Source of the DNA: Eledone cirrhosa
Lineage: Eukaryota
NCBI GenBank assembly: GCA_964016885.1
Contig: OZ024747.1
Location: forward strand, 34,348,001 to 34,412,000
Direction of reading: 5' to 3'
Length of the DNA: 64,000 bases
Shown: positions 5,848 to 64,000 of the stretch, in pieces
Position numbering within the stretch: the first letter of the stretch is position 1
How the letters are laid out: each line of letters opens with the position of its first letter
The notes under the pieces: generated by a model
Database searches by the model: none
What the model saw: only the letters and a program-made list of their open reading frames with translations
Told to the model about the DNA's origin: nothing
Program-made: the position numbers and the translations under genes

Positions 5848-6087
5848 TATACATATTAATAATAATAAATTTGAAGACTAAAATCCAAAGAAGAACCCGT
5901 TAAGGGTGGATGCAGCGATATTTTGCTTAAACTTTAATCTGTTATTTTAATAAATATATATATATATATATATACATAACTGGTCGGTCAAGGTGATATA
6001 TAAAGATATGAGTTGTATATATAGTGGTAGAACACTGGAAGGTAATATCCGTAGTGGTAGAGCACTCAGTCCATGGGACGAGTTAGG

Positions 6088-27743: not shown

Positions 27744-27795
27744 CTGTCTAAGCCACTTTAGTTTCCTGTTAAAGTGCTTATCACATTCTTGAGTA

Positions 27796-37570: not shown

Positions 37571-37590
37571 CATATATATATATATATATT

Positions 37591-38627: not shown

Positions 38628-38761
38628 GATAAATAAGGGGGAATCTGGAAATACTATGAGTATAGAATATAACAAATGGACAAAAAGAGAAACAAAATGA
38701 ACATACAATTTATATAAAAGTTAATTTTAAAAAATATAACATAAATATAACAATGTACATG
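38628..38761 (-). mobile_element. Orphan 5' UTR of the Tx1-like element
   Basis: Near-identical to 58938-59072 and abuts (TAA)n at the same junction (ACAATGTACATGATAATAAT). Confidence 0.8.
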
Positions 38762-38770
38762 ATAATAATG

Positions 38771-38855
<85 letters not shown>
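38762..38855. repeat. (TAA)n tract; further junction tracts at 43363-43418, 48127-48167, 52877-52912, 53660-53678, 59073-59125
   Basis: Direct reading. Confidence 0.97.
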
Positions 38856-41800
38856 GGGAAGAAGACGCACGAGGTGACGGAGGTCATGAAATCGCTCCCG
38901 TAAGTTTTGAATTTTTAACATATTTAAACCATTTGTGAAATAACAACTCTTAGTACAAATGCTACGTAAAGCACCCGGCTTGAGCCCCAAAAAATTCGGA
39001 CCCAAAATATATTGTTATAAGGCTCAAATATTCAAATATTCAACTTTGTATTGTACACTGTATATCCAAAAAAGAAAATGGCTATAAATGGAAGAAGAAC
39101 CCCCCCCCCTCCTCCTCTGTATACACTATATAGAACAGCCAAACTCACCAACACCAGAAACTAGATACACCACCCACCCTATCACCTGTGTACACTAAAC
39201 CACCACCGATCACTACGGCCATCATTACAACCATTATCCCATCACCGCCGCCACCACCCCTTCACTCCTTCACTGCTGCCACCGCTACAGCACCATCGCT
39301 ACAGTAATACGGTCACATCACCGCCACCACTGCCTCGGTATCGACATCACCACCACCACTGTCTCAGTATCGCTACCGCCGCCAGTCTCCCACTTCTTCT
39401 TTTAGCTGGCTGCTGCCACCACATTATAGAATCCCTACTGCTAAAAAAGAGGAAGGCATCAAAATATATAGATAGACTCAAAAGAAAAAAGAAAAAATAA
39501 ACAACAAAAGCAGCACAGCAACAACAGTAAAAAACGAGAAAAACAGAGAAAAACAAAAACAAAAAAAGAAACCCCCAAAACGTAAAGAAAATAAGAATGA
39601 AGAGAGAGGCAGGCGGACGGACAGAGAAGAGGGGGGAAAAAGTAAAACTTAAAAAACAAAAACTAAGTCAGACATTCGAATACTACATTACAATGAAACT
39701 TATGCTTATTCATTTTTGGGGCCCTTTCTGCCCGTGTGTTTGTTTGTTTATGTGTGTCCGTATACAGCGTGGTGATAATGCCACACAAGGGCCAAGTGGG
39801 ATGGCGGATCCACAGATGGCTATGTAAACATACATTCGCCAATCCTCGATAAGAGTGTTTAAATATCGAACATAAACAGTTCGAATAACGGTGAAATGGA
39901 GACTAGAACGTCATGTGACAGACTCTCACCCAACAGGTGCCCCCTGGCTCAGCAGCAGGAACCTGACTGTCAACGAAATACTGCTGATGTTGGAGGAAGA
40001 AGAAGAAGGAAAGGGGCCAGAACCAACTGGACGAAAGAATTGAATAGAACTGTTATGCAATGCTACCTGAAAAGTAACCCCAAGGAGAGGGGCTACAGGA
40101 GACGGATGCATAACATCTGGAACGAGATTGGTTTATTTAAATTAGATGAACAAAAATTGGCCGGGCAGGCTCGGGTAATAAGAACTAATGGGTGGATAAG
40201 CGAGCTGGAACTGGAGGAACTGAGCAGAGAGAATGGCTTGGAGATGGCGGGTGTAGTATGCCAGACAAGCGAGCCGGCGGGAAATGAAGGTGAGGAGGTC
40301 CTGAGAGCGGAGGAACCACCCGAAGCAGACAATGATCTGAATACTGAGATAAATAATACCTGGAACAGAGATACGGCCACTGAGGAGATGAATGCTGACG
40401 GGCTAGGACAAGATTCGGTTGACATCCTAAATTTAGTGGTAGATGAGTTGAACAATGATAGTGGGAGACCTATGAACCTAAGATTTGTAGACAGGAAAAA
40501 GTTAAAAGAAACAACAGCTAAGGTAAACAAAGTCATCCCATACCTTGAGGCGAGGAGTCTTCACCAGTGCAACAATATCCTCAAAGCAACAGCAAATACG
40601 GTGAGGAAACTACTTGGTATAAAAGCGAGAGGAAACAACAGACAAGAAAGAGCAGAGCCGTGGTGGAAGAAGCGACTGAGTGGGCAAATCGGGGAAATGA
40701 GAAATGACATAGGAAAGCTTGAGTCACTACTGAATGGGACACTAAAAAACATAGGCACTAAAAATAGACTGGAAATAAAATACAAAACTAGGAGTAAAAA
40801 GCTAAATATTATCATAGAGGAATTGAAGCAACGCATTGTAGCAAAGAGTGCCAAAATCAGGCGATACGAGAACAGAGTCAGTCAGTATAAACAGAACCGC
40901 ATGTTCGACAACAACCAGAAGATGCTGTTTGGACAGCTTGAGGGGAAAGAAAGAGGCACCGACTTGATCCCTGGGGCGGAACAAGCTAAAACATTCTGGA
41001 GAGGAATATGGGAGCAGGATGTTAGACACAATGCCCAGGCAGGGTGGATTGAGACAGTACAGAGGGAGATCGGTGAGCAGGCACAGCAACAGACTGATTT
41101 GAGTATCACAGTTGAAACTCTTAAGGGGCAAGCCAAAAAACTAACCAACTGGAAATCACCAGGCCCAGATGGTGTGCAGGGGTATTGGATTAAACATTTA
41201 ACATCCCTCCACCCGAAGCTGACGGCCATGTTCAATGACTGCTTGGTGTCGGGTGAGGTGCCAGAGTGGTTGACAAAAGGTACCACAGTTCTGATAATGA
41301 AAGACCGAATCAAGGGTAATGATGTTACCAACTATAGACCTATCACATGTCTGCCCGTAATGTGGAAACTGTTGACGAGCATTGTGTCTGAGGAAATCTA
41401 CCATCACCTCCACACAAACAACTTGTTGCCGGACGAACAGAAAGGATGCCGAAAGAAGTCACGTGGTACAAAGGACCAGTTGCTTATTGATAAGATGGTA
41501 ATGGGGAATTGCAGGAGGAGACACACTGATCTTGCCATGGGATGGATAGACTACAGAAAGGCATTTGACATGGTGCCTCATTCCTGGATCACCAAAAGCC
41601 TGGAGATCTTCAGGGTGGCAGATAACATCAGAGAGTTGCTGGGCAGGAGTATGGGGTCCTGGGAGACAGAGTTGACATCAACTGGAGTATCCTTGGGAAG
41701 CGTGAAGATCAAGAGAGGTATCTTCCAGGGAGATAGCCTGTCCCCTCTGTTGTTTGTCCTTGCCCTGATGCCCTTGACCATTATGCTGCGAAAAGTGAGA

Positions 41801-43362
41801 GCAGGATACAAGTTGGGAAGGGGAGAGCTTACCATCAATCACCTCCTCTTCATGGACGATCTTAAGCTCTTCGGGAAAAGTGAGAAGGAGTTGGATGTGC
41901 TTGTTGACACTGTCCGTATTTTCAGCAGTGATATATGTATGCAGTTTGGTATTGGTAAATGTGGAGTCATTGTGATGAGGAGGGGTAGGTTGAGCAGAAG
42001 TAACGGGATCCAGATACCAACAGGTGAGATGATAAAGGAAATTGACTCTGAGGAAGGATACAAGTATTTGGGCGTTCTGGAGGCTGATGGCATAAAGAAC
42101 AAAAAAATGAAGGAATTGTTAAGAACTGAATACATTCGGAGAGTAAGGAGCGTATTGAAGTCACATCTGAACAGCAGAAATGCCATAAGCGCAGTAAATT
42201 CCCGAGCTGTGTCTATTATTAGGTACAGTGCGGGAATTCTGAGATGGAATGTTGCTGAACAAAAAGAAATGGATAGGAAGACTAGGAAGCTATTGACTAT
42301 CTACAACATGTTCCACAAGAGGAGTGATGTCGATAGACTCTACCTAAGGAGATCTGAGGGTGGAAGAGGTCTTATCAGCATAGAGGACTGTGTTCAGATG
42401 GAGAAAAACAACCTATACAAATACGTGACCTATAGTAAGGAGCCAATGCTCAGAGCTGTACTGAAGGAGGGGAGAGTAGGCCAGGGGATACCCAAGGAGG
42501 AAATAACATCAAGGAGGAAGAGCAGCCTTAAGGGAAAATCCCTTCATAGTACCTTCTTTGAGAAAACTGAATTTAGAGATCCACAGACATGGAACTGGTT
42601 GAGAAGAGGAGACCTCAAAAAGGCTACAGAAGGAATGCTAATGGCTGCGCAGGAGCAGGCCCTCAAAACGAAGTGGTTGAAGCACCATATCTACAAGGAG
42701 GAGGCTAGCCCACTGTGCAGGATCTGTGGAGAGAGAGAGGAGACTGTGGCTCACATTGTGTCCGAGTGTAAACACCTAGCCCAGACCCACTATAAGGGCT
42801 GGAGACACGATGTGATGGGCAGGGTGATCCACTGGCACCTGTGCAAAGTAAACAATCTACCACATTCTGAGAAATGGTATGAGCATAGGCCAGAGGCGGT
42901 GATGGAGAACAGTCAGGTGAAGGTGCTGTGGGATTTTAGGATACAGACGGACAAAAAACTGGAACACAATAGACCTGACCTGGTGGTTGTGGACAAAGAA
43001 AAAAGATCGTGCCTGATTGTGGATGTGGCCTGCCCGTTCGACACGAGAGTGCAAGAGAAGGAGAGGGAGAAAATTAACCGATACCAGGACCTAAAGTGGG
43101 AGGTGAAAAGGATTTGGAACTGCCATGAAGTCAAAGTGATCCCGATTGTCATAGGCGCACTGGGGACTATCTCCAAAGGTTTCCAGGGATGGTTAAAGAA
43201 AATCGGCCCCTTCACGCTTTTTGGAACGCTTCAAAAGGCATGCTTGCTTGGAACGGCAAGAACCCTCCGATACGTCCTGAATATCTGAGGCTGCAGGTAG
43301 TGGCTTGATATTCAATCCAACGGACTTTCCAGTTAACCAACATCAATGACTGAGATTCAAGG
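38856..43362 (+). mobile_element. Full-length R4/Dong-clade non-LTR retrotransposon, family A copy 1
   Basis: ~1-kb leader, single ORF, 75-bp 3' UTR, (TAA)n on both sides. Confidence 0.93.
39896..43288 (+). CDS. Intact RT + CCHC + restriction-like endonuclease polyprotein (1130 aa), R4/Dong clade
   Basis: [74 protein letters not shown]...IVDVACP...KINRYQDL. Confidence 0.96.
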   Translation: METRTSCDRLSPNRCPLAQQQEPDCQRNTADVGGRRRRKGARTNWTKELNRTVMQCYLKSNPKERGYRRRMHNIWNEIGLFKLDEQKLAGQARVIRTNGWISELELEELSRENGLEMAGVVCQTSEPAGNEGEEVLRAEEPPEADNDLNTEINNTWNRDTATEEMNADGLGQDSVDILNLVVDELNNDSGRPMNLRFVDRKKLKETTAKVNKVIPYLEARSLHQCNNILKATANTVRKLLGIKARGNNRQERAEPWWKKRLSGQIGEMRNDIGKLESLLNGTLKNIGTKNRLEIKYKTRSKKLNIIIEELKQRIVAKSAKIRRYENRVSQYKQNRMFDNNQKMLFGQLEGKERGTDLIPGAEQAKTFWRGIWEQDVRHNAQAGWIETVQREIGEQAQQQTDLSITVETLKGQAKKLTNWKSPGPDGVQGYWIKHLTSLHPKLTAMFNDCLVSGEVPEWLTKGTTVLIMKDRIKGNDVTNYRPITCLPVMWKLLTSIVSEEIYHHLHTNNLLPDEQKGCRKKSRGTKDQLLIDKMVMGNCRRRHTDLAMGWIDYRKAFDMVPHSWITKSLEIFRVADNIRELLGRSMGSWETELTSTGVSLGSVKIKRGIFQGDSLSPLLFVLALMPLTIMLRKVRAGYKLGRGELTINHLLFMDDLKLFGKSEKELDVLVDTVRIFSSDICMQFGIGKCGVIVMRRGRLSRSNGIQIPTGEMIKEIDSEEGYKYLGVLEADGIKNKKMKELLRTEYIRRVRSVLKSHLNSRNAISAVNSRAVSIIRYSAGILRWNVAEQKEMDRKTRKLLTIYNMFHKRSDVDRLYLRRSEGGRGLISIEDCVQMEKNNLYKYVTYSKEPMLRAVLKEGRVGQGIPKEEITSRRKSSLKGKSLHSTFFEKTEFRDPQTWNWLRRGDLKKATEGMLMAAQEQALKTKWLKHHIYKEEASPLCRICGEREETVAHIVSECKHLAQTHYKGWRHDVMGRVIHWHLCKVNNLPHSEKWYEHRPEAVMENSQVKVLWDFRIQTDKKLEHNRPDLVVVDKEKRSCLIVDVACPFDTRVQEKEREKINRYQDLKWEVKRIWNCHEVKVIPIVIGALGTISKGFQGWLKKIGPFTLFGTLQKACLLGTARTLRYVLNI

Positions 43363-43418
43363 AATAACAATAACAATAATAATAATAATAATAATAATAA
43401 TAGTAATAATAATAATAA

Positions 43419-43980
43419 GGGAAGAAGACGCACGTGCTGGCGGAAGGTCATGAAATCGCTCCCGTAAGTTTTGAATTTTTAACATATTTAAATCATTTGT
43501 GAAATAACAACCCTTAGTACAAATGCTACGTAAAGCATCCGGCTTGAGCCCCAACAAATTTGGACCCAAAATATATTGTTATAAGGCTCAAATATTCAAA
43601 TATTCAACTTTGTATTGTACATTGTATATTCAAAAAAGAAAATGGCTATAAATGGAAGAAGACCCCCCCCCCCCCCTCCTCTGTCTATGCTATATAGAAC
43701 AGCCAAACAACACCAGAAACTAGATACAACACCTACCCCATCACCTCTCTGTGTACACTAAACACAACAGCCAGATAACGGCAATTTCACCACCACCACT
43801 CACTACTGCCATCATTACCACCACTATCCCATCACCGCCGCCACCACTCCTTCATTGCTACCACCGCTACAACACCATCACTACAGTAATACGATCACAT
43901 CACCACCACCACTGCCTCGGTATCGACATCACCACCACTGTCTCAGTATCAATACCGCCGCTACTGTCTCCCACATCTCC
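43419..43980 (+). mobile_element. Copy of the family-A 5' leader, not followed by a family-A ORF
   Basis: Colinear with 38856-39390 and 48175-48925. Confidence 0.85.
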
Positions 43981-44390
43981 CCACCGCCACCACTCCTTCA
44001 ATGCTATCACCACTATTCCCCTGTTAACTTGAGAGAGAAAGGGGAAGGTGTAGGTATCACTAGACTAGGGAGAGGCTAGCAAAAGATATGAATAGATTGA
44101 CTTAGTGACCTGGCCAAGGCCAAACGTCAATATCAACAACTATGGGACTGCTGGCTCACACCTTCCTCACCAACAATATAAAAAGCCCCGGCACCACCAC
44201 CAACATAGCCAACAACAATAACAGCCAACTACAACAAAAAGTATATTATATTATTGTAATGCACTGGGTGATTGCTGGCCTTATGCCTGGAGTGGAGACA
44301 ATTATTAATAATTTCATTCTTAAGCCACGCAATGCTCACATTAAGGAACCACTCATGATAATAACAATTTAAAAAAACAAAACAAAAAGA

Positions 44391-47300
44391 AAACCCCGTG
44401 ACCAAGAAATACCGGGATGGCGGCCGGCGGGGAATAGCCGTGTCTCTAGGGGAGAACGACCCCTCTAGTCTTGGTTGACACTCGTTCTAGAAGTGGTAAC
44501 ACGAAATGATTACCCCTTGGCGGATAAGGATAAAACGCGACAAAATAAAGTAAATGTCTAATGATAAAATCTCATACCGGATCGGCCGTCACCCGGGTAA
44601 AAAAGGGCCGCGTCCCTCAGAGAGGAACCAGATTGGGGTCGAAAAATCAGCTAATGGTTCAAACCTTCCCATCACTTCGGAGCTGGAGACCTCCCATAAC
44701 CGCAATACTCCTACTGTTGGCCCTCCATGCTCACCACCAAGAAATCCAAAGAAAAAGAGAGAAAAATGGTCAAGGGAAGATAATAAAGAAGTCCTTGAGG
44801 CTTTCTACACTGCCATATACTACCCATCAAATACATCGAATACAGAACAGACATATATCAACTGGAAAAAGAAACATCCCGAAAACAGAGGCTATATTGA
44901 CAGTAACAAACTAGCCAATATACGAAGAAATATTGTAAGAAAAAAGTTACTAACTGATATAGAAATTGATCAGATCAAGCTATTAGCACAAAGTCAGCGA
45001 AGGGAAAATGAAACATGTGTCAGTGAAAACGAGGTAAACTGTAACACTTCGAATGCCAGGGTTGGGGCGGAATCACTGGCAACAGAACAAATTAAAGAAA
45101 GGATCGAAAAAGTGGAGGGAGTGCATGCTCAGGATGAAACTCCAAATGAAAATAATGAGATCGTAAATAATAAAGTAATGAAGGAGAATGAACTTGCCAA
45201 CTTGAAGGATGAAATTATGATCGAATGGATGAAAATGAAAGAATCTGACATGGGGAAACGAGACACCCTCCCTAAGATCCAGAACTCCAAACAGAACCAA
45301 AAGATAATACACAAGGCTAACATAATTCTCAAAAACATTATCATCACAAACAAACTAAACATTACTGATTTAAATCATCTCTATTATGCATCGGCTAAAG
45401 TCACCACTCACTTATGTGGAGTGAAGATGAAAAAACAAAGGAATTCCCACAAGAAATCTACTTGGCAAGAGAACATCAATCGCCAAATAAACCTTCTCCG
45501 ATCTGACAAGTAAATTTTAACAAACTATAAAGTAGGTGAACATGTTAAACAAACTAAACTTAGAAAATTGAGGAAGTGCAAGAATTCTGGGAAAAGATCT
45601 GGGCCGAAGAAAAAGTTCATAACATACATGCCCCATGGATAGACAGACAAATGAAAGATACAGCTCACCTTGAGGAACAAACATGGGAAAATATAACAGT
45701 TGAACAGTTGCGCTTGGCTCTAAGAAAAACCAGCAAATGGAAATCCCCAGGAAAAGACAAAATACAAAACTTTTGGATAAATGCCTTCACAGAGTCTCAC
45801 GAGCTGTTAGCCCAACTTTACAATGAAATAGTTAAGGAGCCAGAAAAGATACCTTCATGGCATTACATTCCTGCTTCCGAGAATGATGAGACAAACAATC
45901 CCAAAAATTACAGACCGATAACTTGCTGGACCACAACGTATAACATTTTAACATCAGTCCTAACTGAATACACATATGACCACCTGATAACAAATGACCT
46001 ATTTCCCATTGAGCAGAAAGGGTGTAAACGAGGCTCATATGGCTGTAAGGATCAGCTTCTGGTTAACAAAATGATACTGGAAGATTGTCATAATAGACAG
46101 AAAAATCTATCGATTGCTTGGATAGATTATAAAAAGCATTTGATAGTTTGCCACACAGTTGGATTGAAAAATGTTTAGAGATTTTCAAAGTATCCCCCGT
46201 TGTCAGGAGGTTTTTGTCATTCAGTATGAAGACATGGAAAACGACACTCCTTTTGAATAGTGAAACAAAATCACTGGAAGCTGGAGAAGTTAATATTAAT
46301 TGTGGAATTTTTCAGGGTGACTCTTTATCACCGCTTTTATTCTAGATCTCGCACTTATACCATTAAGTAAAATGCTCAATGAAACAAAACATGGATATAA
46401 AGTCTATGACAAAACCATTAATCACCTGTTCTACATGGATGACCTGAAACTATTTGCCAAAAATGATGAACAATTGCAAGGGCTATTATCCACTGTGAAG
46501 CAGTTCAGTGATGACATTAAAATGGAGTTTGGACTAGATAAATGCGCCAAAGCAACGTTCACCAGAGGAAAGCTGCTGAAGAGTTCAGACATTAATCTTG
46601 ATCGGTGGAACATGATGAGAGAACTTGATCAAGAAAAAACTTACAAATATCTAGGTGTTTGTGAAGGAGACGGAATCAAGTACTCGACAATGAGGGAAAG
46701 GATAAGGAAGGAATGTTACTGTAGAGTAAGAGCAATCTTAAGAACGGAATCGAATGCAAGGAATAGGATCGATGCCATAAACACGCTTGCCATACCAGTA
46801 GTAACCTACAGTTACAATGTCATCAACTGGTCAAGCACAGAGATCCGTAGGCTCGATACAAAAATTCGAAAATTCTTAACCATGCACAGAATGCATCACC
46901 CTAAGGCAGATATAGATATAATATATCTCCCTAGGAAAGAAGGAGGACGTGGGTTAATCCAGTTAGACATTGCGTTGAAAACTGCAACAATTGGATTATC
47001 TACATATCTAAGGGAATCACATGATTGGATGATCAAACTCGTTTTGAAACACGAACGCATCAAAAGATCATATTCCATTACAAAAGATGCACAAAGATAC
47101 AGTAATGGACTACACATTTCAGAAGTCCCATTTACTGCTGAAATGGAAAACACAGAAAAAGCAAAGCAGGTAAAAGTAACTGCAAAGAAAGAACTGCTAC
47201 AGAAACTGGCTAAGAAATGGCAAGAAAAGCCTCTGTATGGAAAATACCCAGAGCGAGCTAACAATCCTGATGTTGACAAAACTTTAACCCATCAGTGGTT

Positions 47301-48125
47301 GGCATCCTCTGGACTGAAATCGGAGACTGAAGGACTGATTATATCGGCACAAGATCAGTGTCTGCCAACAAAAAATTACCAAGCCAACATAATAAAAAAT
47401 GGGTGCAGCCCATTATGCCGTGTATGCAAAAAACAACCAGAGACCATTGACCATATAATTTCAATGTGCAGTCCTATAGCTCCAACCGAATACCTAAACA
47501 GGCATGACAGAGCTGCACAATACATACATTGGATAATGTGTAAGCATTTTCACCTGCCCCATCAAAAGAATTGGTGGGAGCATCAACCACCTCCCATACT
47601 TGAAAAATATCACATCTCAATCTTGTGGAACTTTAGCATCCAAACAGACCGAAAAATAGATGCAAACAGACCTGATATAATAATGAAAGACTTTCAAAAG
47701 AGGGTATGCCTGCTAATTGATATGTCTGTTCCAATAGACAAGAATGTATCTATAAAAACATTTGAAAAATTGAGCAAGTATAAGGACCTGGAGATAGAAA
47801 TTGGAAAAATGTGGAAATTGAGAAATAAAACAATACCAGTGGTTGTAGGCGCTCTGGGAATGATACCTAAGGGGTCTAATGATTACATATTGCAAATCCC
47901 AGGAAACCCGCGTACAGGAGAAATACAAAAGATAGTACTAATGGGAACTGCCCATATACTAAGGAAGATTCTGTCAATATAAGTACATCACAAGTCTAAA
48001 CACTAAAGATGCATGTGTGAATATGTATGTTCTTTCTTGAACATGGCGGACCTGGTTGTCTCTTGAGGTCACTGGTTGTGACTTGGTGATAACTCGTATG
48101 AACATAAAGCAAGATAAATGCAACT

Positions 48126-48126
<1 letters not shown>
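44391..48126 (+). pseudogene. R4/Dong-clade element, family B, disrupted
   Basis: [80 protein letters not shown]...LIDMSVP; stops and frameshifts; (TAA)n tail. Confidence 0.93.
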
Positions 48127-48167
<41 letters not shown>

Positions 48168-48174
48168 GAGAATA

Positions 48175-51100
48175 GGGAGAAGACGCACGTGGTGGAAATA
48201 AGGTCGTGAAATCGCTCCCGTAAGTTTTGAATTTTTAACATATTTAAATCATTTGTGAAATAACAACTCTTAGTACAAATTTTACGTAAAGCATCCGGCT
48301 AGAGCCCCCAAAAAATTCGGACCCAAAATATATTGTTATAAGGCTCAAATATTCAAATATTCAACTTTGTATTGTACATTGTATATTCAAAAAAGAAAAT
48401 GTCTATAAATGGAAGAAGAAGAACCGCCTCCTCTGTCTACACTATATAGAACAGCCAAACAACACCAATCTCACCAACACCAGAAACTAGATACACCACC
48501 TACCCCATCACCTCTCTGTGTACACTAAACACAACAGCCAGATATCGGCAACTTGATCACCACCATAACCAATCTCAACACAATAATGATAATAATAAAT
48601 ACTATTATTATTGTCCCAAGTTTTAACAAAATGTTTAATTCCAACATTAAGGGAATTTATGTCAACACATGTACGCGACTAACCCCATAGATTCACCGAA
48701 CGGACATCAGTGACGACAACGACATCACTACAGTCACCGCCCGCCGCCGCCGCCCATCCATCATTACTACCACTATCCCATCACCGCCGCCACCACTCCT
48801 TCATTGCTACCACCGCTACAACACCATCACTACAGTAATACGATCACATCACCACCACCGCTGCCTCAGTATCGACATCACCACCACCACTGCCTCAGTA
48901 TTGCTACCGCCGCTATTCTCTCCCATTGCTTCCTGCTAGTTGCTGCTAGCACAGCACTGTCACCACATTATAGAATTCCTACTAAAAAAGAGGAAGGCAT
49001 CAAAATATATAGATAGACTCAAAAGAAAAAGCAAAAATCAAAACCAAAGCAGCACAGCAACAACAACAAAAAACAACAAACAGAGAAAAACAAAAACAAA
49101 AAAAAACGTAAATAAAATAAGAATGAAGAGTGAAACAAGCGGACGGACAGAGAAGAGAAGGGAAAAACTAAGTCAGACATTCGAACACTACATTACAATG
49201 AAACTTATGCTTATTCATTTTGGGGGGGTTTTCTGCCTGTTTCTTTGTTTGTTTATTTGTGTTCGTCTACAGCGTGGTGATAATTCCACACAAGAGCCAA
49301 GTGGAGCGACGCAACCACAGGAGACGGTGAATCTACAGATGGTTATGCAACCATACATTCGCCAATCCTCGATAAGAGTGTTTAAATGTCGAACCTAAAC
49401 AGTTCGAATAACGGTGAAATGGAGACTAGAATGTCATGTGACAGACTCTCACCCAACAGGTGCTCTCTGGCTCAGCAGCAGGGACCTGGCTGTCAACCAA
49501 ATACTGCTGGTGTCGGAGGAAGAAGAAGAAGGAAAGGGACCAGAACCAAATGGACGAAAGAATTGAATAGAACTGTTATGCAATGTTACCTGAAGAGTAA
49601 CTCCAAGGATAAAGGCTATAGGAAAAGGATGCATAACATCTGGAACGAGATTGGTCCATTTAAATTAGATGAACAAAAACTGACCGGGCAGGCTCGGGTA
49701 ATAAGAACTAATGGGTGGATAAGCGAGCTGTAACTGGAGGAACTGAACAGAGAGATTAGCTTGGAGATGGAGAGTTGAGTATGCCAGGCAAACGAGCCAG
49801 TGGGAAATGAAGGTAAAGAGGTCGAGAGAACGGAGGAACCACCCGAAACAGACAATGATCTGAATGCTGATATAAATAATACCTGGAACAGAGATACGGC
49901 CACTGAGGAGATGAATGCTGACGGGCTAGGACAAGATTTGGTAGATATCCTAAACTTAGTGGTAGATGAATTGAACAATGATAGTGGGAGACCTATGAAC
50001 CTAAGATTTGTAGACAGGAAAAAGTTAAAAGAAACAACAGCTAAGGTAAACAAAGTCATCCCATACCTTGAGGCGAGGAGCCTTCACCAGTGCAACAATA
50101 TCCTGAAAGCAACAGCAAATACGGTGAGGAAACGACTTGGTATAAAAGCGAGAGGAAACAACAGACAAGAAAGAGCAGAGCCTTGGTGGAAGAAACGACT
50201 GAGTGGTCAAATCAGGGAAATGAGAAATGACATTGGAAAGCTTGAGGCCCTACTGAATGGGACACTAAAAAACATAGACACTAAACATAGACTGGAAATA
50301 AATTACAAAACTAGGAGGAAAAAGCTAAATATTATCATAGAGGAACTGAAGCAACGCATTGTAGCAAAGAGTGCAAAAATCAGGCGATACGAGAACAGAG
50401 ACAGCCAGTATAGACAGAACCGCATGTTCGACAACAACCAGAAGATGCTGTTTGGACAGCTTGAAGGGAAAGAAAGAGGCAACGACTTGATCCCTGAAGC
50501 GGAACAAACTAAAACATTCTGGAGAGGAATATGGGAGCAGGATGTTAAACATAATGACCAGGCAGTGTGGATTGAGACAGTACAGAAGGAGATCAGTGAA
50601 CAGCCACACCAACAAACTGATTTGAGTATCACTGTTGAAACTCTTAAGGGGCAGGCCAAAAAACTACCCAACTGGAAATCACCTGGCCCAGATGGTGTGC
50701 AGGGGTATTGGATTAAAAACATAACATCCCTCCACCCGAAACTGACAACCATTTTCAATGACTGCTTGATGTCAGGTGAGGTACCAGAGTGATTGACAAA
50801 AGGTACCACAGTTCTGACAATGAAAGACCGAATCAAGGGTAATGAAGTTACCAACTATAGACCTACCACATGTCTGTCTGTAATGTGGAAACTGTTGACA
50901 AGCATTATGCTGAGGAAATCTACCATCACCTCCACACAAACAACTTGTTACCGGACGAACAAAAAGGATGCCGAAAGAAGTCACGTGGTACAAAGGACCA
51001 GTTACTAATTGATAAGATGGTAATGAGGAATTGCAAGAGGAGACACACTGGTCTTGCCATGGGATGGATAGACTACAAAAAGACATTTGACATGGTGCCT

Positions 51101-52876: not shown

Positions 52877-52910
52877 TAATAACAATAATAATAATAATAA
52901 TAATAACAAT

Positions 52911-53654: not shown

Positions 53655-53678
53655 ACAAAAATAATAATCATAATAATA

Positions 53679-56600
53679 CTTTATTTATTAACCACAAGGG
53701 TTTACATAAAGTAGACATTAAGGACAGTACAGGACAATACAAGACGGTACAAATGGGCATTTCTGCGTGTAAAAAACAAGAAACAGAGGATGTAATAATA
53801 GAACAATGAAAAAAATTCCCCAATAGGGGGGATTCTTCCGAGGGACATTCCTGGAGAAAGCACATTAAAAAAGACAAAGTGACACTGACCACCAGGGCAA
53901 GTGCCCTCTCCCAGTTTTCCACCTTTAATTTACAGACACATACTCAGAGTAGGCCCATTCACTCGGGCCATTCTTGCCTCTCTCACCATCTTTCAACAAA
54001 ATGCTGGGAAGAGAGTACTTTCCTTTCTACCCTGATCTTCCTTTTCAAATGAAATTTGAAAAAGTTAATCAGGGCATCACCGAAGAGGTAAGTGCTCGTC
54101 TTCAGCCCTTTCAAACGTGTCCACCATACTATCTCTTTCGCCATGGCCACCAGACAGATAAAAACTGACTGCCCTTCCCGGCTAAAGGAGGAGGGCGGGG
54201 CAATCCTCACGATGGACTCAGCTGATAGCCGGATCAGTCCTACATGCGACAGCAGGTGTTCGACATAAACCCACAAGTCAGCAATGCTCGGACACTGGAT
54301 GAGTTCGTGCAGGACGGTTCCGTCGCCCTGCGCGCATCTCGGACATGTCATGCTGACGGCACCTCCATGCCTGTAGAGTTTATCCCGAACAGGAAAAGCT
54401 CCTCGGTGGCACTGCCAGGCCAGGGATTTCTGGAAGTTGTCTATAGGCCCCGGGCCGAAAGTTCTTCCGAAGAGATTGGCTAGTAGATTTTCGTCGACGC
54501 CTAGAGTTTCCCCAAGTACGTCATCGCACTTCCCCTCCACTAATCCTCTATAGAACGCCAAGGTGGAGTTTCCACCGATTACATTGCCCGATTGGTCGAA
54601 GGATGTGAGCGCCTGAAGACATTCCAGTCTCCAAGCGCTCCCTCTCGTTCTTCGCTTGACCCAGGACTGCAGCTCCGTCAAGGAGACGAGCTGGGGAAAA
54701 ACGTGTCTAGCAAACGGCGACCACACCTGATCACCGTCGAGGAAGAGGTGGATATGTCGTAGCCCGAGCCCGTGTCTGCGCATCATCACCCACGCCATTC
54801 CCAGCCCTCCACGTAGCGGGTGTTGACAGCAGATGGACCGACTGACATCGGAGCGTGTCCCTTCCACAAAAAGCGAAAGAGCAAACGCTCCAGCGCAGTC
54901 AGGCGGGGCTTAGGACAAGGTACGACGGTCAGGCGATAGTAGATGACGGAAGCGATATACGCGTTAGCCACCTCCGCTTGACCTTTCAAGGATAGGTTCA
55001 TCTCGGCCCATTTCTGGGTGAGAGAAGCCACCCTGCTCGTCACCTCGTCCCAGGTTTTGTCCGTCTCGAGATCCGGACCGAACGAGACCCCTAGCAATTT
55101 AACTGATCCGTCCGTCCAGCGCCCGACGACGCTGTTGGACGGCATGGACCTGCCTCTCCAGGTGCCGAGCTGCAGGCTCACTGACTTTTCCTGATTGTTC
55201 ATTGCACCTGTCACCGCTTCGTAAACTCTTAGTGTAGTGCCGATCGCATCAATGTGTTTGACGTTCGACACCACTACAGTGACATCGTCCGCATATGCTG
55301 ACACGGATCTTCCGCATCCTAGTTCGTGCGCGACCCGCCTCAACGTCTACAGTTTGTGCAGTAATGGCTCGAGAGTCAATACGTACAAGAGGGACGAGAG
55401 GGGATATACTTGGCGGACCGAGCGCATGATGTTGAACGGTTTCGAAAGGTGACCGTTCACTCTTACCACAGAGCAGATGTCGCTGCGCATGGCAGAGATC
55501 TAGCCTCTGAAGACGGGCCCAAAGCCAGCCGCCCTCAGCACTGCCGCTAGGTAACGATGGTCCACCCTATCGAAAGCTTTCGTCTGATCTAAATTTATCA
55601 AGGACCCACCCGTGCCAGGTTCCCTAGCTACCCTCTCTACGATGTATCGCATGAGGTGGAGGTTGTCGTGGATGGATCTGTCGGGAATGGCGCATGTCTG
55701 TGCCTCTCCCACCAGACCACCAACGACAAGCGCCAACCTCTTTGCTAGCACCTTGGCCAAAATCTTGAACTCTGTGTTATGCAGAGTTATGGGACTAAAA
55801 TTATCTATGTTATATCCCTTGTTCGGATGCTTTCTCAGCAGCGCCACAGCTCCTCGGCTCACAGAGCTGGGAATTCTCCCGTTCTATTGCCAGTTGCACT
55901 AGACGTCCGCCAAGAGGCCTCCGAAAAATCTGGCATCTTTACGTAAAGTTCATAGGGCAGACCATCCAAACCAGGCGATTTACCCCTTGTGGAGCTAGTC
56001 ATTGCCTCCCGTGCTTCAGTGGCTGTTGTCGGCTTTTCGCAACACTCCACCTCAGTGGCCGAGAGCTGCGACAGACCGTCGAATTAAACACTAAAGTCCA
56101 TCCTTCGATCCGGCCGGCCGCTGCCCCCGAACAACTGAGCGAAGTGTCGCTGAAAAGCTTCACACATTTGCCCGGGATGGAGTAGCATGCGCCCGTCGTG
56201 GTCCACCAAAGAACGGATCGTGGCTTTGTTGCCACGACGCGCCTCCGCCACTCGGGCCCATTGAACGGCTTTCGTCCCCTCGTGTCTGAGAGGACGCACC
56301 CTAGCTCTGACAACACAGCCTTCGTGCTTTGCATTGAAGAATTGGTCAAGGGCCAATTTCGCCGCAAGTACGTCGGTCGCGATCCCTTTGCTAAGCGCCT
56401 CGTCTAATTTTCTAACTAATTCTCCCTCTGCTCTATTTTTCTCTATTGCTAAAGCCTTACTAAACCTAATGGACTCTATTCTAATTGCTCTATTCAGAGC
56501 AAACCACCACTTTTTATTGACGATGGCATCCGTCAACGCCCTCTTAACTAGTTCGCTAATCCAGTCTCTTTAGGCCTTGCGAGCTGATAAGGACGCGTTT

Positions 56601-59072
56601 AGGTTCCAGTAGCCGGGTCTTCGTCTATGAAGTCTATCTAAATCAAGCACACAGATCACGAATTTGTGGTCCGTGTAGCTGAATATCTTGAATTGTGGAG
56701 AGCCTATGATAGACCTATCTATTTCTCTACAAAATACTCTATCTAGATATGATCTGGATGACCCTATGCGATTTGTCCAAGTCCACATTGGCACATTCGG
56801 GAAATCCAATCGGTACCTGTCAGACAGTTCAAAACGCCTGAGCAGGTTGGTGAGGTTCTTGCACCCTCCTCCCCTATCCGCTAATCCCACACAATCCCAG
56901 CGTGCATCTATGATCCTGTTCCAGTCGCCCACTAACACTAAAGAGCGGGACGTTCCAAGAAAGGTCTCCAGACGCCGGAAGAAATCAGGCCGTCCTCTCC
57001 TGTCGGGGCATAGACGTCTAGCACCACCAACTTACTTTCTGCGTCCAGGAAGATGGCCCGTATGGCGAGATCCAAACCTCTCCGAAAAAGTACAGCAAGT
57101 CCTCCACCCGATCCCGGACGGCTGTGAGATGCGTACACATCGTAGCCGCCGAAGATCGGTGGGAAGGCGCCTGCTTCGGAGATTCTGGTCTCGCTGATGG
57201 CCACTACATCTATGTTTAGTGACCTTAGGTCGTTGAGCAGGTGGCTCCACTTCCATGACGACCCCAAGCCACGCGCATTTATGCTGCCTATTCTGAGAGA
57301 GGTCATGTTGAAATGGAGTGGAAAAGATGGGAAAGACCACTTACCTTATTTCTCGTAGTGAAAAGCAGTGAAAATGATGGTTTGTCCATCCTTTTCACTG
57401 CTTGTGGCCTCCTCCGGAAGGATGAGCTTATAAATCCTCCTGGAAAGTGTTTGTCGGAAGTCTCCGATGTCTTTGGGGAACTTTTGTTTTAGTGTCGTGT
57501 ACGTTTTCTGTGTGATGCGAGTGATTTGTATATGTGGAGTTGGTGTGAACTTTTGGGTTGTTGTGTAGTCTTTTTCTGTGATGCTGGTGTTGTGTTGTAT
57601 GTAGTGTAATAATTGGTTGTTGTTCAAATTTAATGCTGTCTAGTGTGTATCGTTTTGGTTGTTTTGTTTTGTTTGCGTTTGTTGTGAGCTTGTTTCTGTT
57701 ACGCTTTTTGGTGACTTTTGTGGTGTTGGGGTTAATGATGGTGATGGTGTTGGTGTTTGGGTTGATGGGGTTGGTGATGCTGGTGTGAATGGTGGCATAT
57801 CTGTCCTAACTTTTTTGTTTGTTAATTTATTTGTTTCCCTCTGTATTTTGTTTTTGGAGGGGGAAAGAACAGATTTTTTTCTTTTTTTGGTTCCTATTTT
57901 TCTTTTTTCCTGATACCGTTTCTCACTCCTCGTCGTCACAATCTGTCTCCAGTTGCGATAAGCCGGGGAGTGGAAATTCCTCCACAGGCGTTGGTTTTGG
58001 TTGTGGCGTGGTGGATGGTGTAGGCGCTTGGTGCTAGTTCTGGTGCGTTAGGTGGTGGTGGTGTTGGTTTTGCTACTGTTGCTGGGTTTGTTGCTGTTAC
58101 AGTTGCTTCTGTTGTTGCTGCTACAGGTGTTGCTGCCATTTCTGCTGCTGGTGGTGTTGATGGTTGAGTCACTGGGGTGGGTAAGGGAGGTGGCCTCAAC
58201 CTTTTAGCCTGAGGGCAGAAAGCCCTTAGGTGGGTTCCTTCACCACAAACGACACACCTAGGTCTTCTGCCCTCGACGATTACAGTGAGGTGGCTTCCGT
58301 CAGTGAGGTCTATTACCTTTGGGATCTCCGCAATGCTTTCATGGTCCGCTTGGATCAGGAGCTCCATCCCAGATCCGGACCAGTTCTCCTGTTTTTCTTT
58401 TGCTATTTCTATTATTTTAGTGTTGGCATCGATGCCGGCGAGGACGGCAGCCATTAGCCAGGGAATTTCGATGGCCGGTGGAACGTGGGTCACCCTGATC
58501 TTCACAAGTCCCTGGACACAATAGCTTGGGACGTGTGTGAAGTCGTCACTTCTTAATGGGGCCATGGAGTGTTCTCTGGCCTCCTAAGGTTGTTTTAAAG
58601 TACATGTCCACGGCTCCATACTGCTGCCCACGTCTGATGTGGTTTTTTTTTGCCCAAACATGTCCCAAAGATTTTTGGATTTGGGACTCGGATGCCCGTT
58701 CCACTCGGCGCGATTTTATGCTAATTGTCCGATAAGACACGGTGCATAGGCGACGTTGCTCCATTTTATTATGGGGGGGGGGCTGACCCTGTACCTATCT
58801 TTCTTTACCATTCCTTTGGCTTCTTCTAATTCCTCCTGAGTTACCTGGATCGCTTCGCACGTTTTTGCTACTCTGGCAAAACTCAGGGTAGTTTTCTTAG
58901 TTTCATTGGTGTTGTTGTTATCGTTATTTTTGCTATTGATAAATAATGGGAAATCTGGAAATACTATGAGTATAGAATATAACAAATGGACAAAAAGAGA
59001 AACAAAATGAAACATACAATTTGTATAAAAGTTAATTTAAAAAAATACAACATAAATATAACAATGTACATG
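53679..59072 (-). pseudogene. Full-length Tx1/L1-clade element, copy A, disrupted (ORF1 ~58900-57346, ORF2 57306-53925)
   Basis: ORF2 fragments colinear with 59388-62807; ORF1 fragments with SFARVAK, KIRVTHVP (RRM-like) and CVVCGEGTHLRAFC (CCHC); AATAAA at the 3' end; (TTA)n on both sides. Confidence 0.93.
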
Positions 59073-59080
59073 ATAATAAT

Positions 59081-59127
<47 letters not shown>

Positions 59128-59387
59128 TTTCTTTATTAACCACAAGGGTTTACATAAAGTAGACATTAAGGACAGTGCAGGACAATGCAGGACGGTACAA
59201 ATGGGCATTTCTGCGTGTAAAAAAACAAAAACAGAGGATGTAACAAAAATAACAATGAAAATAACAATGAAAAATTCCCCAATAGGGGGGAGACTTCGGA
59301 GGGACATTTGTGGAGAAAGCCCAGTAAAAAGCCACAATGACCCTGACCACCAAGGCAAGTGCCCTCTCCCAGTTTTCCACCTTTAGT

Positions 59388-62300
59388 TTACAGATATATA
59401 CTCAGAGTCGGCCCATTCACTCGGGCCATTCTTGCTTCTCTCACCCATCTTTCAACAAAATGCTGGGAAGAGAGCACTTCCCTCTCTACTCTGATTTTCC
59501 TTTTCAAATGAAATTTGAAAAAGTCAATCAGAGCATCACCGAAGAGGTAAGTGCTCGTCTTCAGCCCTTTCAAACGTGTCCACCATACTATCTCTTTCGC
59601 CATGGCCACCAGACAGATAAAAACTGCCTGCCCTTCCCTGCTAAAGGAGGAGGGCGGGGCAATCCTCACGATAGACTCAGATGATAGCTGGATCCGTCCT
59701 AAACGCGACAGCAGGTGTTCGACATAAACCCACAAGTCAGCAATTTTCGGACACTGGACGAGTGCGTGCAGGACGGTTTCGTCGCCCTGCGCGCATCTCG
59801 GACATGCCCGGCTGACGGCACCTCCATGCCTGTAGAGTTTATCCCGAACTGGCAAGGCTCCTCGGTAGCACTGCCAGGCCAGAGATTTCTGGAAGTTGTC
59901 CATAGGCCCTGGCCCGAAAGTTCTTCCGAAGAGATTGGCTAGTTGATTTTCGTCGACGCCTAGAGTTTCCCCAAGTACGTCGTCGCTCTTCCCCTCCACT
60001 AATCCTCTATAGAACGCCGAGGTGGAGTTTCCACCGATCACATTGCCCGATTGGTCGAGGGCTGTGAGCGCCTGAAGACATTCCAGTCTCCAGGCGCTCC
60101 CTCTCGGTCTTCGCTTGACCCAGGACTGCAGCTCCGTCAAGGAAACGAGCTGGGGAAAAACGCGTCTAGCAAACGGCGACCACACCTGATCACCGTCGAG
60201 GAAGAGGTGGAGTGGTCGTAGCCTGAGCGCGTGCCTGCGCATCATCAGCCACGGCATGCCCAGCCCTCCACGTAGCGGGTGTTGACAACAGATGGACCGC
60301 CTGACCATCGGAGCACGTCCCTTCCACAAAAAGCGAAAGAGCAAACGCTCCAGCGCAGTCAGGCGAGGCTTAGGACAAGGTACGACGGTTAGGCGGTAGC
60401 AGATGACAGACGCGATGTACGCGTTAGCCACCTCCGCTCGACCTTTCAGGGATAGCTTCCTCTCCGCCCATTTCTGGGTGAGAGAAGCCACCCTGCTCGT
60501 CACCTCGTCCCAGTTTTTGTCCGTCTGGAGGTCCGGACCGAACCAGACCCCTAGCAATTTAACCGGTCCGTCCGTCCAGCGCCCGACGACGCTGTTGGAC
60601 GGCATGGACCTGCCTCTCCAGGTGCCGAGCTGCAGGCCCACTGACTTTTCCTGGTTGATCATTGCTCCTGTCACCGCTTCGTATTCTCTTAGTGTAGTGC
60701 CGATCGCCTCGATGTGTTTGGCGTTCGACACCACTACGGTGACATCGTCCGCATATGCTGACACGGATCTTCCGCATCCTAGTTCGCGCGGGACTCCCCT
60801 CAACGTCTCCAGTTTGTGCAGTAATGGCTCGAGAGTCAATACGTACAAGAGGGACGAGAGGGGACATCCTTGGCGGACCGAGCGCATGATGTTGAACGGT
60901 TCCGACAGGTGACCGTTCACTCTCACTACAGAGCAGATGTCGCTGTGCATGGCAGCGATCCAGCCTCTGAAGACGGGCCCAAAGCCAGCCGCCCTCAGGA
61001 CTGCCGCTAGGTAACGATGGTCGACCCTATCGAAAGCTTTCGACTGATCTAAATTGATCAAGGACCCACCCGTGCCAGGTTCCCTAGCTACCCTCTCTAC
61101 GATGTATCGCATGAGGTGGAGGTTGTCGTGGATGGATCTGTCGGGAATGGCGCATGTCTGCGCCTCTCCCACCAGACCACCAACGACAAGCGCCAACCTC
61201 TTTGCTAGCACCTTGGCCAAAATCTTAAACTCTGTGTTTAGCAGAGTTATGGGCCGGAAATTGTCTATGTTATCCCCCTTGTTCGGATCCTTTCTCAGCA
61301 GTGCCACCGCTCCTCGGCTCACAGAACTGGGAATTCTCCCGTTCTGTTGCCAGTTGCAGTAGACGTCCGCCAAGAGGCCTCCAAACAAGTCTGGCATCTG
61401 TACGTAAAGTTCATAGGGCAGACCATCCAAACCAGGCGATTTACCCCTTGTGCAGCCAGTCATTGCCTCCCTTACTTCAGCGGCTGTTATCGGCTTTTCG
61501 CAACACTTCGCCTCAGTGGCCGAGAGCCGCGGCAGTCCGTCGAGGTAGACACTAAAGTCCATCCCTCTACCCGGCCCCCCGCTGCCCCCGAACAGCTGAG
61601 CGAAGTGTCGCTGAAAAGCTTCACACATTTGCCCGGGATCGAGTAGCATGCGCCCGTCGTGGTCCACCAAAGACCGGATCGTGGCTTTGTTGCCACGACG
61701 CGCCTCCGCCACTCGGGCCCATTGAACGGCTTTCGTCCCCTCGTGTCTGAGAGCACGCACCCTAGCTCTGACAACGCAGCCTTCGTGCTTTGCATTGAAG
61801 AATTGGTCAAGGGCCAATTTCGCCGCAAGCACGTCGGTCGCAATGCCTTTGCTAAGCGCCTCGTCTAATTTTCTAACTAGTTCTCCCTCTGCTCTATTTT
61901 TCTCTATTGCTAAAGCCTTACTAAACCTAATCGATTCTATTCTAATCGCTCTTTTCAGAGCAAACCACCACTTGTTGTTGACGATGGCCCCCGTCAACGC
62001 CCTCTTAACTAGTTCGCTAATCCGGTCTCTGTAGGCCTTGCGCGCTGGTAAGGACGCGTTTAGCTTCCAGTAGCCGGGTCCTCGTCTATGAAGCCTATCT
62101 AAGTCAAGCACACAGATCACGAATTTGTGGTCCGTGTAGCTGACTATCTTGAATTGTGGACAGCCTATGCTAGACCTATCTATTTCCCTACAAAATACTC
62201 TATCTAGATATGATCTGGATGACCCTATGCGGTTTGTCCAAGTCCACATTGGCACATTCGGGAAATCCAATCGGTACCTGTCAGACAGTTCAAAACGCCT

Positions 62301-62807
62301 GAGCAGGTTGGTGAGGCTCTTGCACCCTCCACCCCTATCCGCTAATCCCACACAGTCCCAGCGTGCATCTAAGATCCCGTTCCAGTCGCCCACTAACACT
62401 AAAGAGCGGGACGTTCCAAGAAAGGTCTCCAGACGCCGGAAGAAATCAGGCCGCCCTGCTCCTGTCGGGGCATAGACGGCCACTAGCCTGAAAGCTTGCC
62501 CGTCTCCGCTGGTCACGTCCAGCACCACCAGCTTACCCTCTGGGTCCAGGAAGATGGCCCGTATGGCGAGATCCAAACCTCTCCGAAAAAGCACAGCAAC
62601 TCCTCCACCCGATCCAGGACGGCTGGGAGATGCGTACACATCGTAGCCGCCGAAGATCGGTGCGAAGGCCCGTGCTTCGGAGATTCTGGTCTCGCTGATG
62701 GCCACTACATCTATGTTTAGTGACCTGAGGTCGTTGAGCAGGTGACCCTGCTTCCATGACGACCCCAAGCCACGCGCATTTATGCTGCCTATTCTGAGTG
62801 AGGTCAT
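59388..62807 (-). CDS. Intact ORF2: APE endonuclease + RT + C-terminal CCHC (1139 aa), Tx1/L1 clade
   Basis: SINARGL, SET, VYAP, GDWN, YLDRV, TDH; KSPGLDG, FRPITLLN, LDQSKAFDRV, VRQGCPLS, YADD; CPRC...ETVLHALVQC. Confidence 0.96.
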   Translation of the reverse strand: MTSLRIGSINARGLGSSWKQGHLLNDLRSLNIDVVAISETRISEARAFAPIFGGYDVYASPSRPGSGGGVAVLFRRGLDLAIRAIFLDPEGKLVVLDVTSGDGQAFRLVAVYAPTGAGRPDFFRRLETFLGTSRSLVLVGDWNGILDARWDCVGLADRGGGCKSLTNLLRRFELSDRYRLDFPNVPMWTWTNRIGSSRSYLDRVFCREIDRSSIGCPQFKIVSYTDHKFVICVLDLDRLHRRGPGYWKLNASLPARKAYRDRISELVKRALTGAIVNNKWWFALKRAIRIESIRFSKALAIEKNRAEGELVRKLDEALSKGIATDVLAAKLALDQFFNAKHEGCVVRARVRALRHEGTKAVQWARVAEARRGNKATIRSLVDHDGRMLLDPGQMCEAFQRHFAQLFGGSGGPGRGMDFSVYLDGLPRLSATEAKCCEKPITAAEVREAMTGCTRGKSPGLDGLPYELYVQMPDLFGGLLADVYCNWQQNGRIPSSVSRGAVALLRKDPNKGDNIDNFRPITLLNTEFKILAKVLAKRLALVVGGLVGEAQTCAIPDRSIHDNLHLMRYIVERVAREPGTGGSLINLDQSKAFDRVDHRYLAAVLRAAGFGPVFRGWIAAMHSDICSVVRVNGHLSEPFNIMRSVRQGCPLSSLLYVLTLEPLLHKLETLRGVPRELGCGRSVSAYADDVTVVVSNAKHIEAIGTTLREYEAVTGAMINQEKSVGLQLGTWRGRSMPSNSVVGRWTDGPVKLLGVWFGPDLQTDKNWDEVTSRVASLTQKWAERKLSLKGRAEVANAYIASVICYRLTVVPCPKPRLTALERLLFRFLWKGRAPMVRRSICCQHPLRGGLGMPWLMMRRHALRLRPLHLFLDGDQVWSPFARRVFPQLVSLTELQSWVKRRPRGSAWRLECLQALTALDQSGNVIGGNSTSAFYRGLVEGKSDDVLGETLGVDENQLANLFGRTFGPGPMDNFQKSLAWQCYRGALPVRDKLYRHGGAVSRACPRCAQGDETVLHALVQCPKIADLWVYVEHLLSRLGRIQLSSESIVRIAPPSSFSREGQAVFICLVAMAKEIVWWTRLKGLKTSTYLFGDALIDFFKFHLKRKIRVEREVLSSQHFVERWVREARMARVNGPTLSIYL

Positions 62808-62842
62808 GTTTAAAATAGAGTGGAAAAGATGGGAAAGACCAC

Positions 62843-64000
62843 TTACCGTACTTTTGGTAGAGGAGGGATGGTTTTTACATCCCTTTTCACTTGATCGTCT
62901 GGTGAAGGGACCGTTGAATCGTCCCTTCGGCTGGTCGTCGGCTCTTCTAAGAGAATGTCTGAATATACTCTTCGATTAATGGTTCCTCCTAGGTCCCTGA
63001 AATCACCAACTGCGTTGGGGAATTTCGTTTTAATGTTTGTGTATTGTTTCTGTGCTATTTTTAGCAGTCTTATGTTAGTTGGCGTTTTGATTGGTGCTGG
63101 TATTATGTAGTCCTGTTGTGAAATGTCTGTGTGTTCAATTATGTAAGTCATTAGTTTCTTGTTGTGTGTATTTATTGCCGTGCATTTGTTTTTCTGGGGG
63201 TGGGGTGTGGTTCTGCTATTTTCTTGTCGTTGTTGCTGGGTGTGTGTGTTTTGTTGTTGTGTTTGCGATGTTGGTGCTTGTGGTGGTGGTGTTGAAGGTG
63301 TTGTTGGCGGTGGGGTTGTCGCCGGTGGTGATGGTGGCGCTAGTGTGGGTGGTGATGGTGTTGGTGTTGTTGCTGCTGTGGGTCTCTTTGCAGTAGACTT
63401 TACCCTTTTCTCATTTCTTTCCTCACTTTTCAAAGGCGACGATGCGCTGCTTCTGCGTTTGTGCCTTCTTACGACCTTTTGCCATCTCTCTCCCACCTCA
63501 CACTCCATGTCTGATTCTGTGAGGTCGGGGAGGGGTACCAACTCCACTCTTTCACTTGTTGTTGTTGGTGATGTTTGCACTGGAGTCTCTGTTGCAGCTG
63601 CATTTGGTATTGCTGTTGTTGTTGTTAGTATTTCCACTGCTGCTGCTGTTTTTGATTTCCGTGGAGTGGGTATGGGTGCCACGGGCCTATCGTTCCTGGT
63701 TGCCGCTTGTCCTGTTGCTGGTAGCCGTGGAGCCGGATTCGGAAGGAGGGGGGTTTTCTCCTTTCTCAGGGTCTTCTCGTTGCAGAAGGCCCTGAGGTGA
63801 GTCTTCGATCCACAGCGAAAGCATTTCGGGCGTTTGCCCTCAACACTTATGGGCAGTTGAGTGCCGTTATCGAAGTCTATCACATCCGGGATAGCTTCGA
63901 TGCACTCCTGGTTGGTTTGGATTAGCATCTCAATGGAGGAGCCGACCCAATCTTCTCTTACTTTTTTCTGTACTTGCAGTACAGTTGTTTTGTCCTCGAT
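62843..64000 (-). CDS. ORF1 (partial): zinc knuckle, Pro/Thr-rich linker, C-terminal domain
   Basis: CFRCGSKTHLRAFC (CX2CX4HX4C); stops 35 nt upstream of the ORF2 ATG; true start probably lies beyond the window. Confidence 0.88.
   Translation of the reverse strand: MEDKTTVLQVQKKVREDWVGSSIEMLIQTNQECIEAIPDVIDFDNGTQLPISVEGKRPKCFRCGSKTHLRAFCNEKTLRKEKTPLLPNPAPRLPATGQAATRNDRPVAPIPTPRKSKTAAAVEILTTTTAIPNAAATETPVQTSPTTTSERVELVPLPDLTESDMECEVGERWQKVVRRHKRRSSASSPLKSEERNEKRVKSTAKRPTAATTPTPSPPTLAPPSPPATTPPPTTPSTPPPQAPTSQTQQQNTHTQQQRQENSRTTPHPQKNKCTAINTHNKKLMTYIIEHTDISQQDYIIPAPIKTPTNIRLLKIAQKQYTNIKTKFPNAVGDFRDLGGTINRRVYSDILLEEPTTSRRDDSTVPSPDDQVKRDVKTIPPLPKVR

Follow-up and report, generated by a model that had tools for sequence, protein, structure and literature searches.

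Dong-type and Tx1-type retrotransposons very probably (at roughly 83%) both insert into (TAA)n tracts throughout the genome of Eledone cirrhosa, in opposite orientations and in mixed arrays, with each endonuclease likely nicking a different strand. Convergence of the two clades on one microsatellite had been proposed in an earlier note on this DNA and is supported here by a census of element flanks, by orientation and by clustering. The array which led to the proposal lies in a stretch of 64,000 nucleotides (C7:34348001-34412000, hereafter the window). Positions 38628-64000 of the window were studied and the array was read as assembled.

The studied region is composed almost entirely of elements, which cover 24,806 of its 25,373 bases, in agreement with the earlier description of almost no unique DNA. 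From the left, a (TAA)n tract (38762-38855) is followed by a full-length copy of Dong family A (38856-43362) with an intact frame of 1141 codons (39863-43288), a second tract (43363-43418), a full-length copy of Dong family B (43419-48126) with a broken ORF (44554-47982), a third tract (48127-48167), a full-length family A copy decayed by stops and frameshifts (48170-52876), a fourth tract (about 52877-52912) and a 5'-truncated 3' fragment of family A (52911-53659). A decayed fifth tract (53660-53680) forms a tail-to-tail junction between Dong and Tx1. Beyond it lie a decayed Tx1-clade copy of an older subfamily, TxO, whose 5' end is about 550 bases short (53680-58937), and, after a sixth tract (59073-59125), a full-length Tx1-clade copy of a young subfamily, TxY, which runs from 59126 to 64000 and on to 65153 past the window. 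The TxY copy has an intact ORF2 (59388-62975) with APE, RT and zinc finger, and an ORF1 with one CCHC knuckle. All the tracts are on the plus strand, as are the four Dong pieces of two families, which therefore carry (TAA)n in sense as first described; both Tx1 copies are on the minus strand. The six tracts that had been claimed are all present, five found by TRF and the decayed one read from the sequence, while six insertions were counted in the window instead of at least seven. A range from intact to decayed copies is also evident. Identity to the nearest sampled copy is 99.8% for the intact Dong A, 98.8% for Dong B, 96.6% for the decayed Dong A, 94.9% for the Dong A fragment, 93.6-95.5% for TxO and 99.6% for TxY. 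The array extends past the window to about position 83,000 with unchanged polarity and includes a TxY piece, Dong A, TxO, a Dong A fragment and older Tx1 copies. Immediately to its left is a high-copy repeat (37589-38602) with a local duplication (37589-37987 and 38139-38538) and a small inversion. Further left, a Penelope-like element with weak RT and GIY-YIG matches occupies 26505-29436; a segment near it, at about 25866-26188 and 29484-29731, is inverted.

The Dong A ORF contains RT (RVT_1), CCHC, RHD and PD..D..K RLE motifs. Its best PDB matches are R2 proteins, its C-terminal stretch aligns weakly to the R2 RLE, and matches to restriction-nuclease Pfam families are below threshold only. 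Dong B has the same motifs and its protein is about 38% identical to that of A over most of the length. The layout of the R4/Dong clade (a single ORF with RT, then CCHC knuckle, RHD and PD-(D/E)xK RLE) is thus present, and (TAA)n is on the sense strand as in that clade. None of the 120 homologues listed bears a family name. The N-terminal 146 residues gave no Pfam match and no zinc finger was seen in them; W56 and N61 are invariant among 20 relatives. The N-terminal Myb/SANT domain of R4/Dong is described in the accessible text of PMC7998251 as divergent, lacking a zinc finger and detected only with HHpred. Dong at (TAA)n has been reported in insects, molluscs and cnidarians (accessible parts of PMC3812793 and PMC7998251). 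The present families resemble Dong of Bombyx, Anopheles, Biomphalaria and Darwinula in the single RT/CCHC/RLE ORF, the lack of an apparent N-terminal zinc finger and the (TAA)n target in sense. They differ in forming two families about 38% identical with one common 5' head, in their copy number and in the tract shared with a Tx1 family.

The 5' UTR of Dong B in the window, like that of full-length B copies, is composed of this common head (43419-43978), a spacer that includes the 3' fragment of a SINE and, at 44357-44390, the decayed remnant of a TAA tract. The junction of these three parts is found in 294 exact copies genome-wide, and Dong B directly flush with a tract at the same point in 4 exact copies. 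Among 12 inspected Dong B loci (L273-L284), ten have the head sequence and two are truncated into the spacer. Variants of the head, 73-92% identical, are found on both Dong A and Dong B. A Tx1 origin of the head was considered and dropped, as it gave low-complexity matches only. At L207:7648-8180, a Dong A copy has an inverted 5' part of the twin-priming type, with TAA tracts on both sides.

The Tx1 element has an ORF1 with a CCHC knuckle and an ORF2 with APE, RT and a C-terminal zinc finger. Catalytic motifs are kept in both nucleases, the Tx1 APE and the Dong RLE. In a 43-row RT tree, which has no named L1 or Tx1 rows, the Tx1 group is sister (96/96) to the group containing L212 and L215, both U2-inserted, whose Keno label rests on the U2 flank. 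The Tx1 element scored 468 bits to L215 versus 181 to human L1 ORF2. By these sequence comparisons the window element groups with a known Tx1 lineage and not with L1. Metagenome elements of Tx1-like type end at U2 snRNA in L212 and L215 (Keno-like), and L222 is followed by U1 snRNA. TxY and TxO are 96-97% identical in ORF2 and have a common 3' end, while their ORF1 and 5' region differ (62891-65153 in TxY versus 57400-58937 in TxO). The closest relatives outside the genome are 40-43% identical and Tx1 relatives are present in four sequencing runs. Metagenomes gave 64 loci with distant Tx1 relatives; 41 of these loci were scanned, and in none were five units of TAA or TTA found in succession.

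Another Tx1 lineage, sister to this one and with the same 3' end, occupies (GATA)n, which reads (TATC)n in sense; three of its junctions were seen in 2 of 40 background stretches. Its sites are on the minus strand of L198 (about 7050-7680) and in L208 (about 2300-2400), and tandem copies are linked by GATA tracts. The RT of L198 is 74% identical, and close APE relatives overall are 74-78% identical in RT. Microsatellite targets of Tx1 elements given in the accessible part of PMC4494074 are (TC)n for Kibi, (TTC)n for Koshi and (TTCC)n/(TTTC)n for crocodilian Tx1. The window element is like these in being an APE element with a microsatellite target whose pyrimidine-rich strand is in sense. It is unlike Kibi and Koshi in its target, (TTA)n, with (TATC)n in the sister lineage, neither of which is among the targets in that part of the source.

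Copies were counted by exact 3' motifs, which gives lower bounds of at least 6,712 3' ends for Tx1 and at least 13,832 for Dong (A 9,992; B 3,840). At full-length TxY 5' ends, AATAATAA is directly next, in a single register, in 2,427 of 2,505 cases genome-wide. The flank samples of both clades were taken from the start of one chromosome, which is not a random draw. Flanks of Tx1 were read at 59 copies among the first 100 matches listed on C1 (first 52 Mb). On the antisense strand, the 3' flank of these copies is (TAA)3 in 54, short TAA in 2, another microsatellite in 3 and (TTA)3 in none. The sense strand therefore shows TTA at 54 of 59 ends and not a Kibi- or Koshi-type (TC)n or (TTC)n target; TTC is met only at compound-repeat boundaries (L141, L025, L027). 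Every full-length Tx1 5' end adjoins a TAA tract (29/29). On the 5' side of truncated copies (TAA)3 is present in 11 of 23, with none in 8, another microsatellite in 3 and TTA in 1, and a further 7 ran off the stretch. Some of the truncated copies lacking (TAA)3 are later breaks. For Dong, TAA follows the 3' end in 29 of 30 family A copies and in 29 of 30 family B copies plus one with both. Dong heads adjoin TAA in 26 of 30 cases, and truncated 5' ends lie at TAA in 25 of 29 (A 14/16, B 11/13; 14 and 17 ran off the locus). In the background, taken as 40 evenly spaced 10-kb stretches (400 kb), a random 40-base window has (TAA)3 in 0.38% and (TTA)3 in 0.37%, and only 7 tracts of at least five units occur. 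The 5' flanks elsewhere in the genome, where non-microsatellite sequence would have told against the proposal, are thus mostly TAA-type for TxY, full-length Tx1 and Dong.

An abundant SINE, also seen inside arrays, makes up 1.6% of the 400 kb sample (L169-L208; window 1-38000). Short ATT repeats are next to its 3' end in 31 of 36 cases, which is the Tx1 polarity. The final 20 bases of the SINE are similar to the Tx1 3' end, with the same spacing, but not significantly; 10 of 524 windows from the Tx1 body score equally, so Tx1 as the partner of this SINE was kept as a lead only. The same non-element sequences adjoin TAA tracts at unrelated loci (window 5857-5900; L070, L099, L111; L016, L096, L103, L133), so that some of the tracts used for landing likely come from other repeat families.

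Element ends are strongly clustered. Of the 235 ends on C1:1-53.6 Mb, 167 lie within 10 kb of a neighbour, above a uniform null of 8% and jitter nulls of 22-32%, which bears out the expected clustering into mixed arrays. The tracts that adjoin element ends have median lengths of 27-48 bases. Orientation relative to TAA is not random either. Neighbouring Dong-Tx1 pairs of the same region are opposite in 43 cases and point in the same direction in 4, so 4 of 47 break the polarity. Same-clade neighbours are alike in 51:1 for Dong-Dong and 14:1 for Tx1-Tx1. Genome-wide, 710 direct tail-to-tail junctions of Dong A and Tx1 were counted against a single Dong A tail followed by a TxY head, a case with a TAA-to-TTA flip in between and with a denominator unlike that of the 710. 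The younger partner in Dong-Tx1 pairs is of either clade (13:13). An age gradient along arrays, hinted by the window, was not borne out in 57 pairs (left younger 19, right younger 23, ties 15). At G000:C1:55423687-55455624, known from coordinates only, five Tx1 copies stand in a row in one direction about 6-7 kb apart.

A different origin of the arrays, in which tandem duplication, unequal crossover or an error of assembly takes the place of repeated insertion, would suit one place where three equally spaced matches occur 395 bases apart. Neighbours in the arrays, however, differ in family, truncation point and age (93.6-99.8% to the nearest sampled copy) and the order of members varies between arrays, making this origin extremely improbable. 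One clade may also exploit the breaks of the other, for example if Tx1 primes from the second-strand nick of Dong on the (TAA)n strand. Opposite orientation would automatically result from such geometry, and a Dong end is present within 10 kb of 39 of 82 Tx1 ends versus 9 expected. The remaining 43 of 82 have no Dong end within 10 kb among the ends listed, some arrays consist of Tx1 only, the APE of Tx1 has its motifs intact, and the (GATA)n sister lineage points to a specificity of Tx1 itself. Break sharing is hence considered very unlikely, and separate targeting of the same tract by each clade is preferred.

For non-LTR elements, target-primed reverse transcription is the established mode of insertion, and by it the orientation of an element indicates the strand of the first nick. 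From this geometry and the orientation of copies, we infer that the two clades nick opposite strands. The Dong RLE would make the priming nick on the (TTA)n strand, while the Tx1 APE, in the simplest reading, would nick the (TAA)n strand at or beside T^AAT, a position that a 3-base repeat leaves unfixed. TRAS1 cuts the same T^AAT step according to the accessible part of PMC7265360. As tracts of about 30-45 bases are observed on both sides of the insertions, each event would raise the number of usable sites and both clades could return to them.

Several Tx1 3' ends have only AAT or TAAT and no TTA tail (L017, L009/L152, L141, L129). Reading by eye also showed an interrupted repeat present in duplicate, once on each side of the Tx1 copy, at L149 (13 bp), at L133 (16 bp) and, with about 11 bp, at L017; for Dong, such duplication was seen by eye at L070 and L099. 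Target duplications together with Tx1 copies lacking a TTA tail argue for targeting rather than tailing in Tx1 and favour a preference of the nuclease. For Dong, some of the TAA next to the 3' end could be tail. Several Tx1 sites have a minimal AAT or a GAA/GTA tract, so the specificity is not absolute.

Targeting could alternatively reside in the RNA, if Tx1 has only a weak L1-like T^AA preference and the (UUA)n of a read-through RNA anneals to the tract. Such a mechanism would account for the difference between full-length and truncated 5' ends described above (29/29 versus 11/23), and tandem Tx1 copies about 6 kb apart, which would yield read-through RNA, are common. It does not fit the copies without a TTA tail (L017, L152, L141, L129), the choice by the L017 copy of the sole TAATAAT spot within a long (GTA)n tract, or the sister lineage, whose 3' end is the same and whose three junctions, in two random loci, are with (GATA)n. 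Targeting by RNA is therefore judged unlikely. Given the weaker 5' signal of truncated Tx1, (UUA)n carried on RNA may still contribute where full-length 5' ends meet the tract, with the nuclease preference as the favoured basis of targeting.

The stretch at 38628-38761, which flanks the array on the left, is repeated at 58938-59072 with about 6 differences; neither copy was given a strand. Across the genome of 3.0 Gb, a 27-mer from these 134 bp has only these two occurrences. Where the TxO of the window meets the stretch, full-length TxO copies continue with about 550 bases of different sequence. Both observations rule out 38628-38761 as a third Tx1 piece. Of the three pieces claimed at first, the two on the minus strand are confirmed, while this one, as judged from its sequence, is host DNA. 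As it is found on both sides of TxO with TAA next to it each time, the repeat is likely an unusually long target-site duplication of TxO. TxO would have landed next to single-copy DNA and duplicated 134 bp through a widely staggered cut; the left tract would then have been taken up by the four Dong pieces and the right one by the young Tx1. By identity to the nearest sampled copy (93.6-95.5% versus 94.9-99.8% for Dong), TxO ranks with the oldest members of the left block, which fits its arrival first and the later filling of the left tract by Dong. From the divergence of the Tx1 copy, somewhat more than about 6 differences would be expected, which speaks against this history. Short-read contigs did not cover the single-copy flank. 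The duplication is close in length to the stagger of 126 bp between the two cuts of R9 in bdelloid rotifers, as given in the accessible part of PMC6895275. In R9 the long stagger is a property of the family, whereas the present one is a single case, since 40 long loci and 13 truncated copies gave no long target duplications except repeat-derived ones.

Two elements inserting into one repeat in opposite directions have a precedent in SART1 and TRAS1, both APE elements of the R1 clade. These are described in Bombyx mori with common telomeric repeats as target (accessible part of PMC7265360). The Dong-Tx1 pair works like the SART/TRAS pair and is not a member of it, as both partners there use APE and are telomere-confined, whereas here one RLE and one APE element meet at a dispersed microsatellite. 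Convergence of an APE and an RLE partner on one target is also found in Keno (Tx1 clade) and Utopia, which share a site in U2 snRNA genes (PMC4640811, accessible part). Their 3' flanks are identical, so they have the same orientation, the target is a low-copy gene, and the accessible part of that source describes no self-renewing mixed arrays. With both precedents, the convergence is less unprecedented than the earlier note implied. In a literature search, with Repbase, subscription papers and supplements outside it, neither a Tx1 that targets TAA/TTA nor any mixed array of Dong and Tx1 came to light. The Tx1 target, the opposite-strand pairing of RLE and APE on a dispersed microsatellite and the scale are likely the new parts.

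A wider and more tentative reading, to which we give less than an even chance, is that (TAA)n arrays act as self-renewing exchange hubs. Modules might be swapped there by read-through or recombination, Dong and SINE tails might seed new tracts, and the Tx1 nuclease might have switched between (TTA)n and (TATC)n. The suggestion is drawn from the piece of fossil array in the Dong B 5' UTR (at least 294 copies) and from the Tx1 subfamilies that share ORF2 and not ORF1. If it is true, such a switch of target inside a single genome would be close to a natural experiment on APE specificity.

The Tx1 clade gains an apparently unreported (TTA)n target and a sister target, (TATC)n. Intact young copies are present and can be assayed, and APE relatives which are 74-78% identical in RT and have unlike targets make the determinants of specificity testable. 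Markers based on TAA microsatellites and insertion calling from short reads will be unreliable at such sites. In the annotation of Octopus vulgaris, Dong-R4 and L1-Tx1 are among the recently active LINEs, and hotspots were mapped and left unexplained, with no target analysis in the accessible part of the source (PMC13282606). The targeting described here offers a concrete mechanism for dense retrotransposon hotspots.
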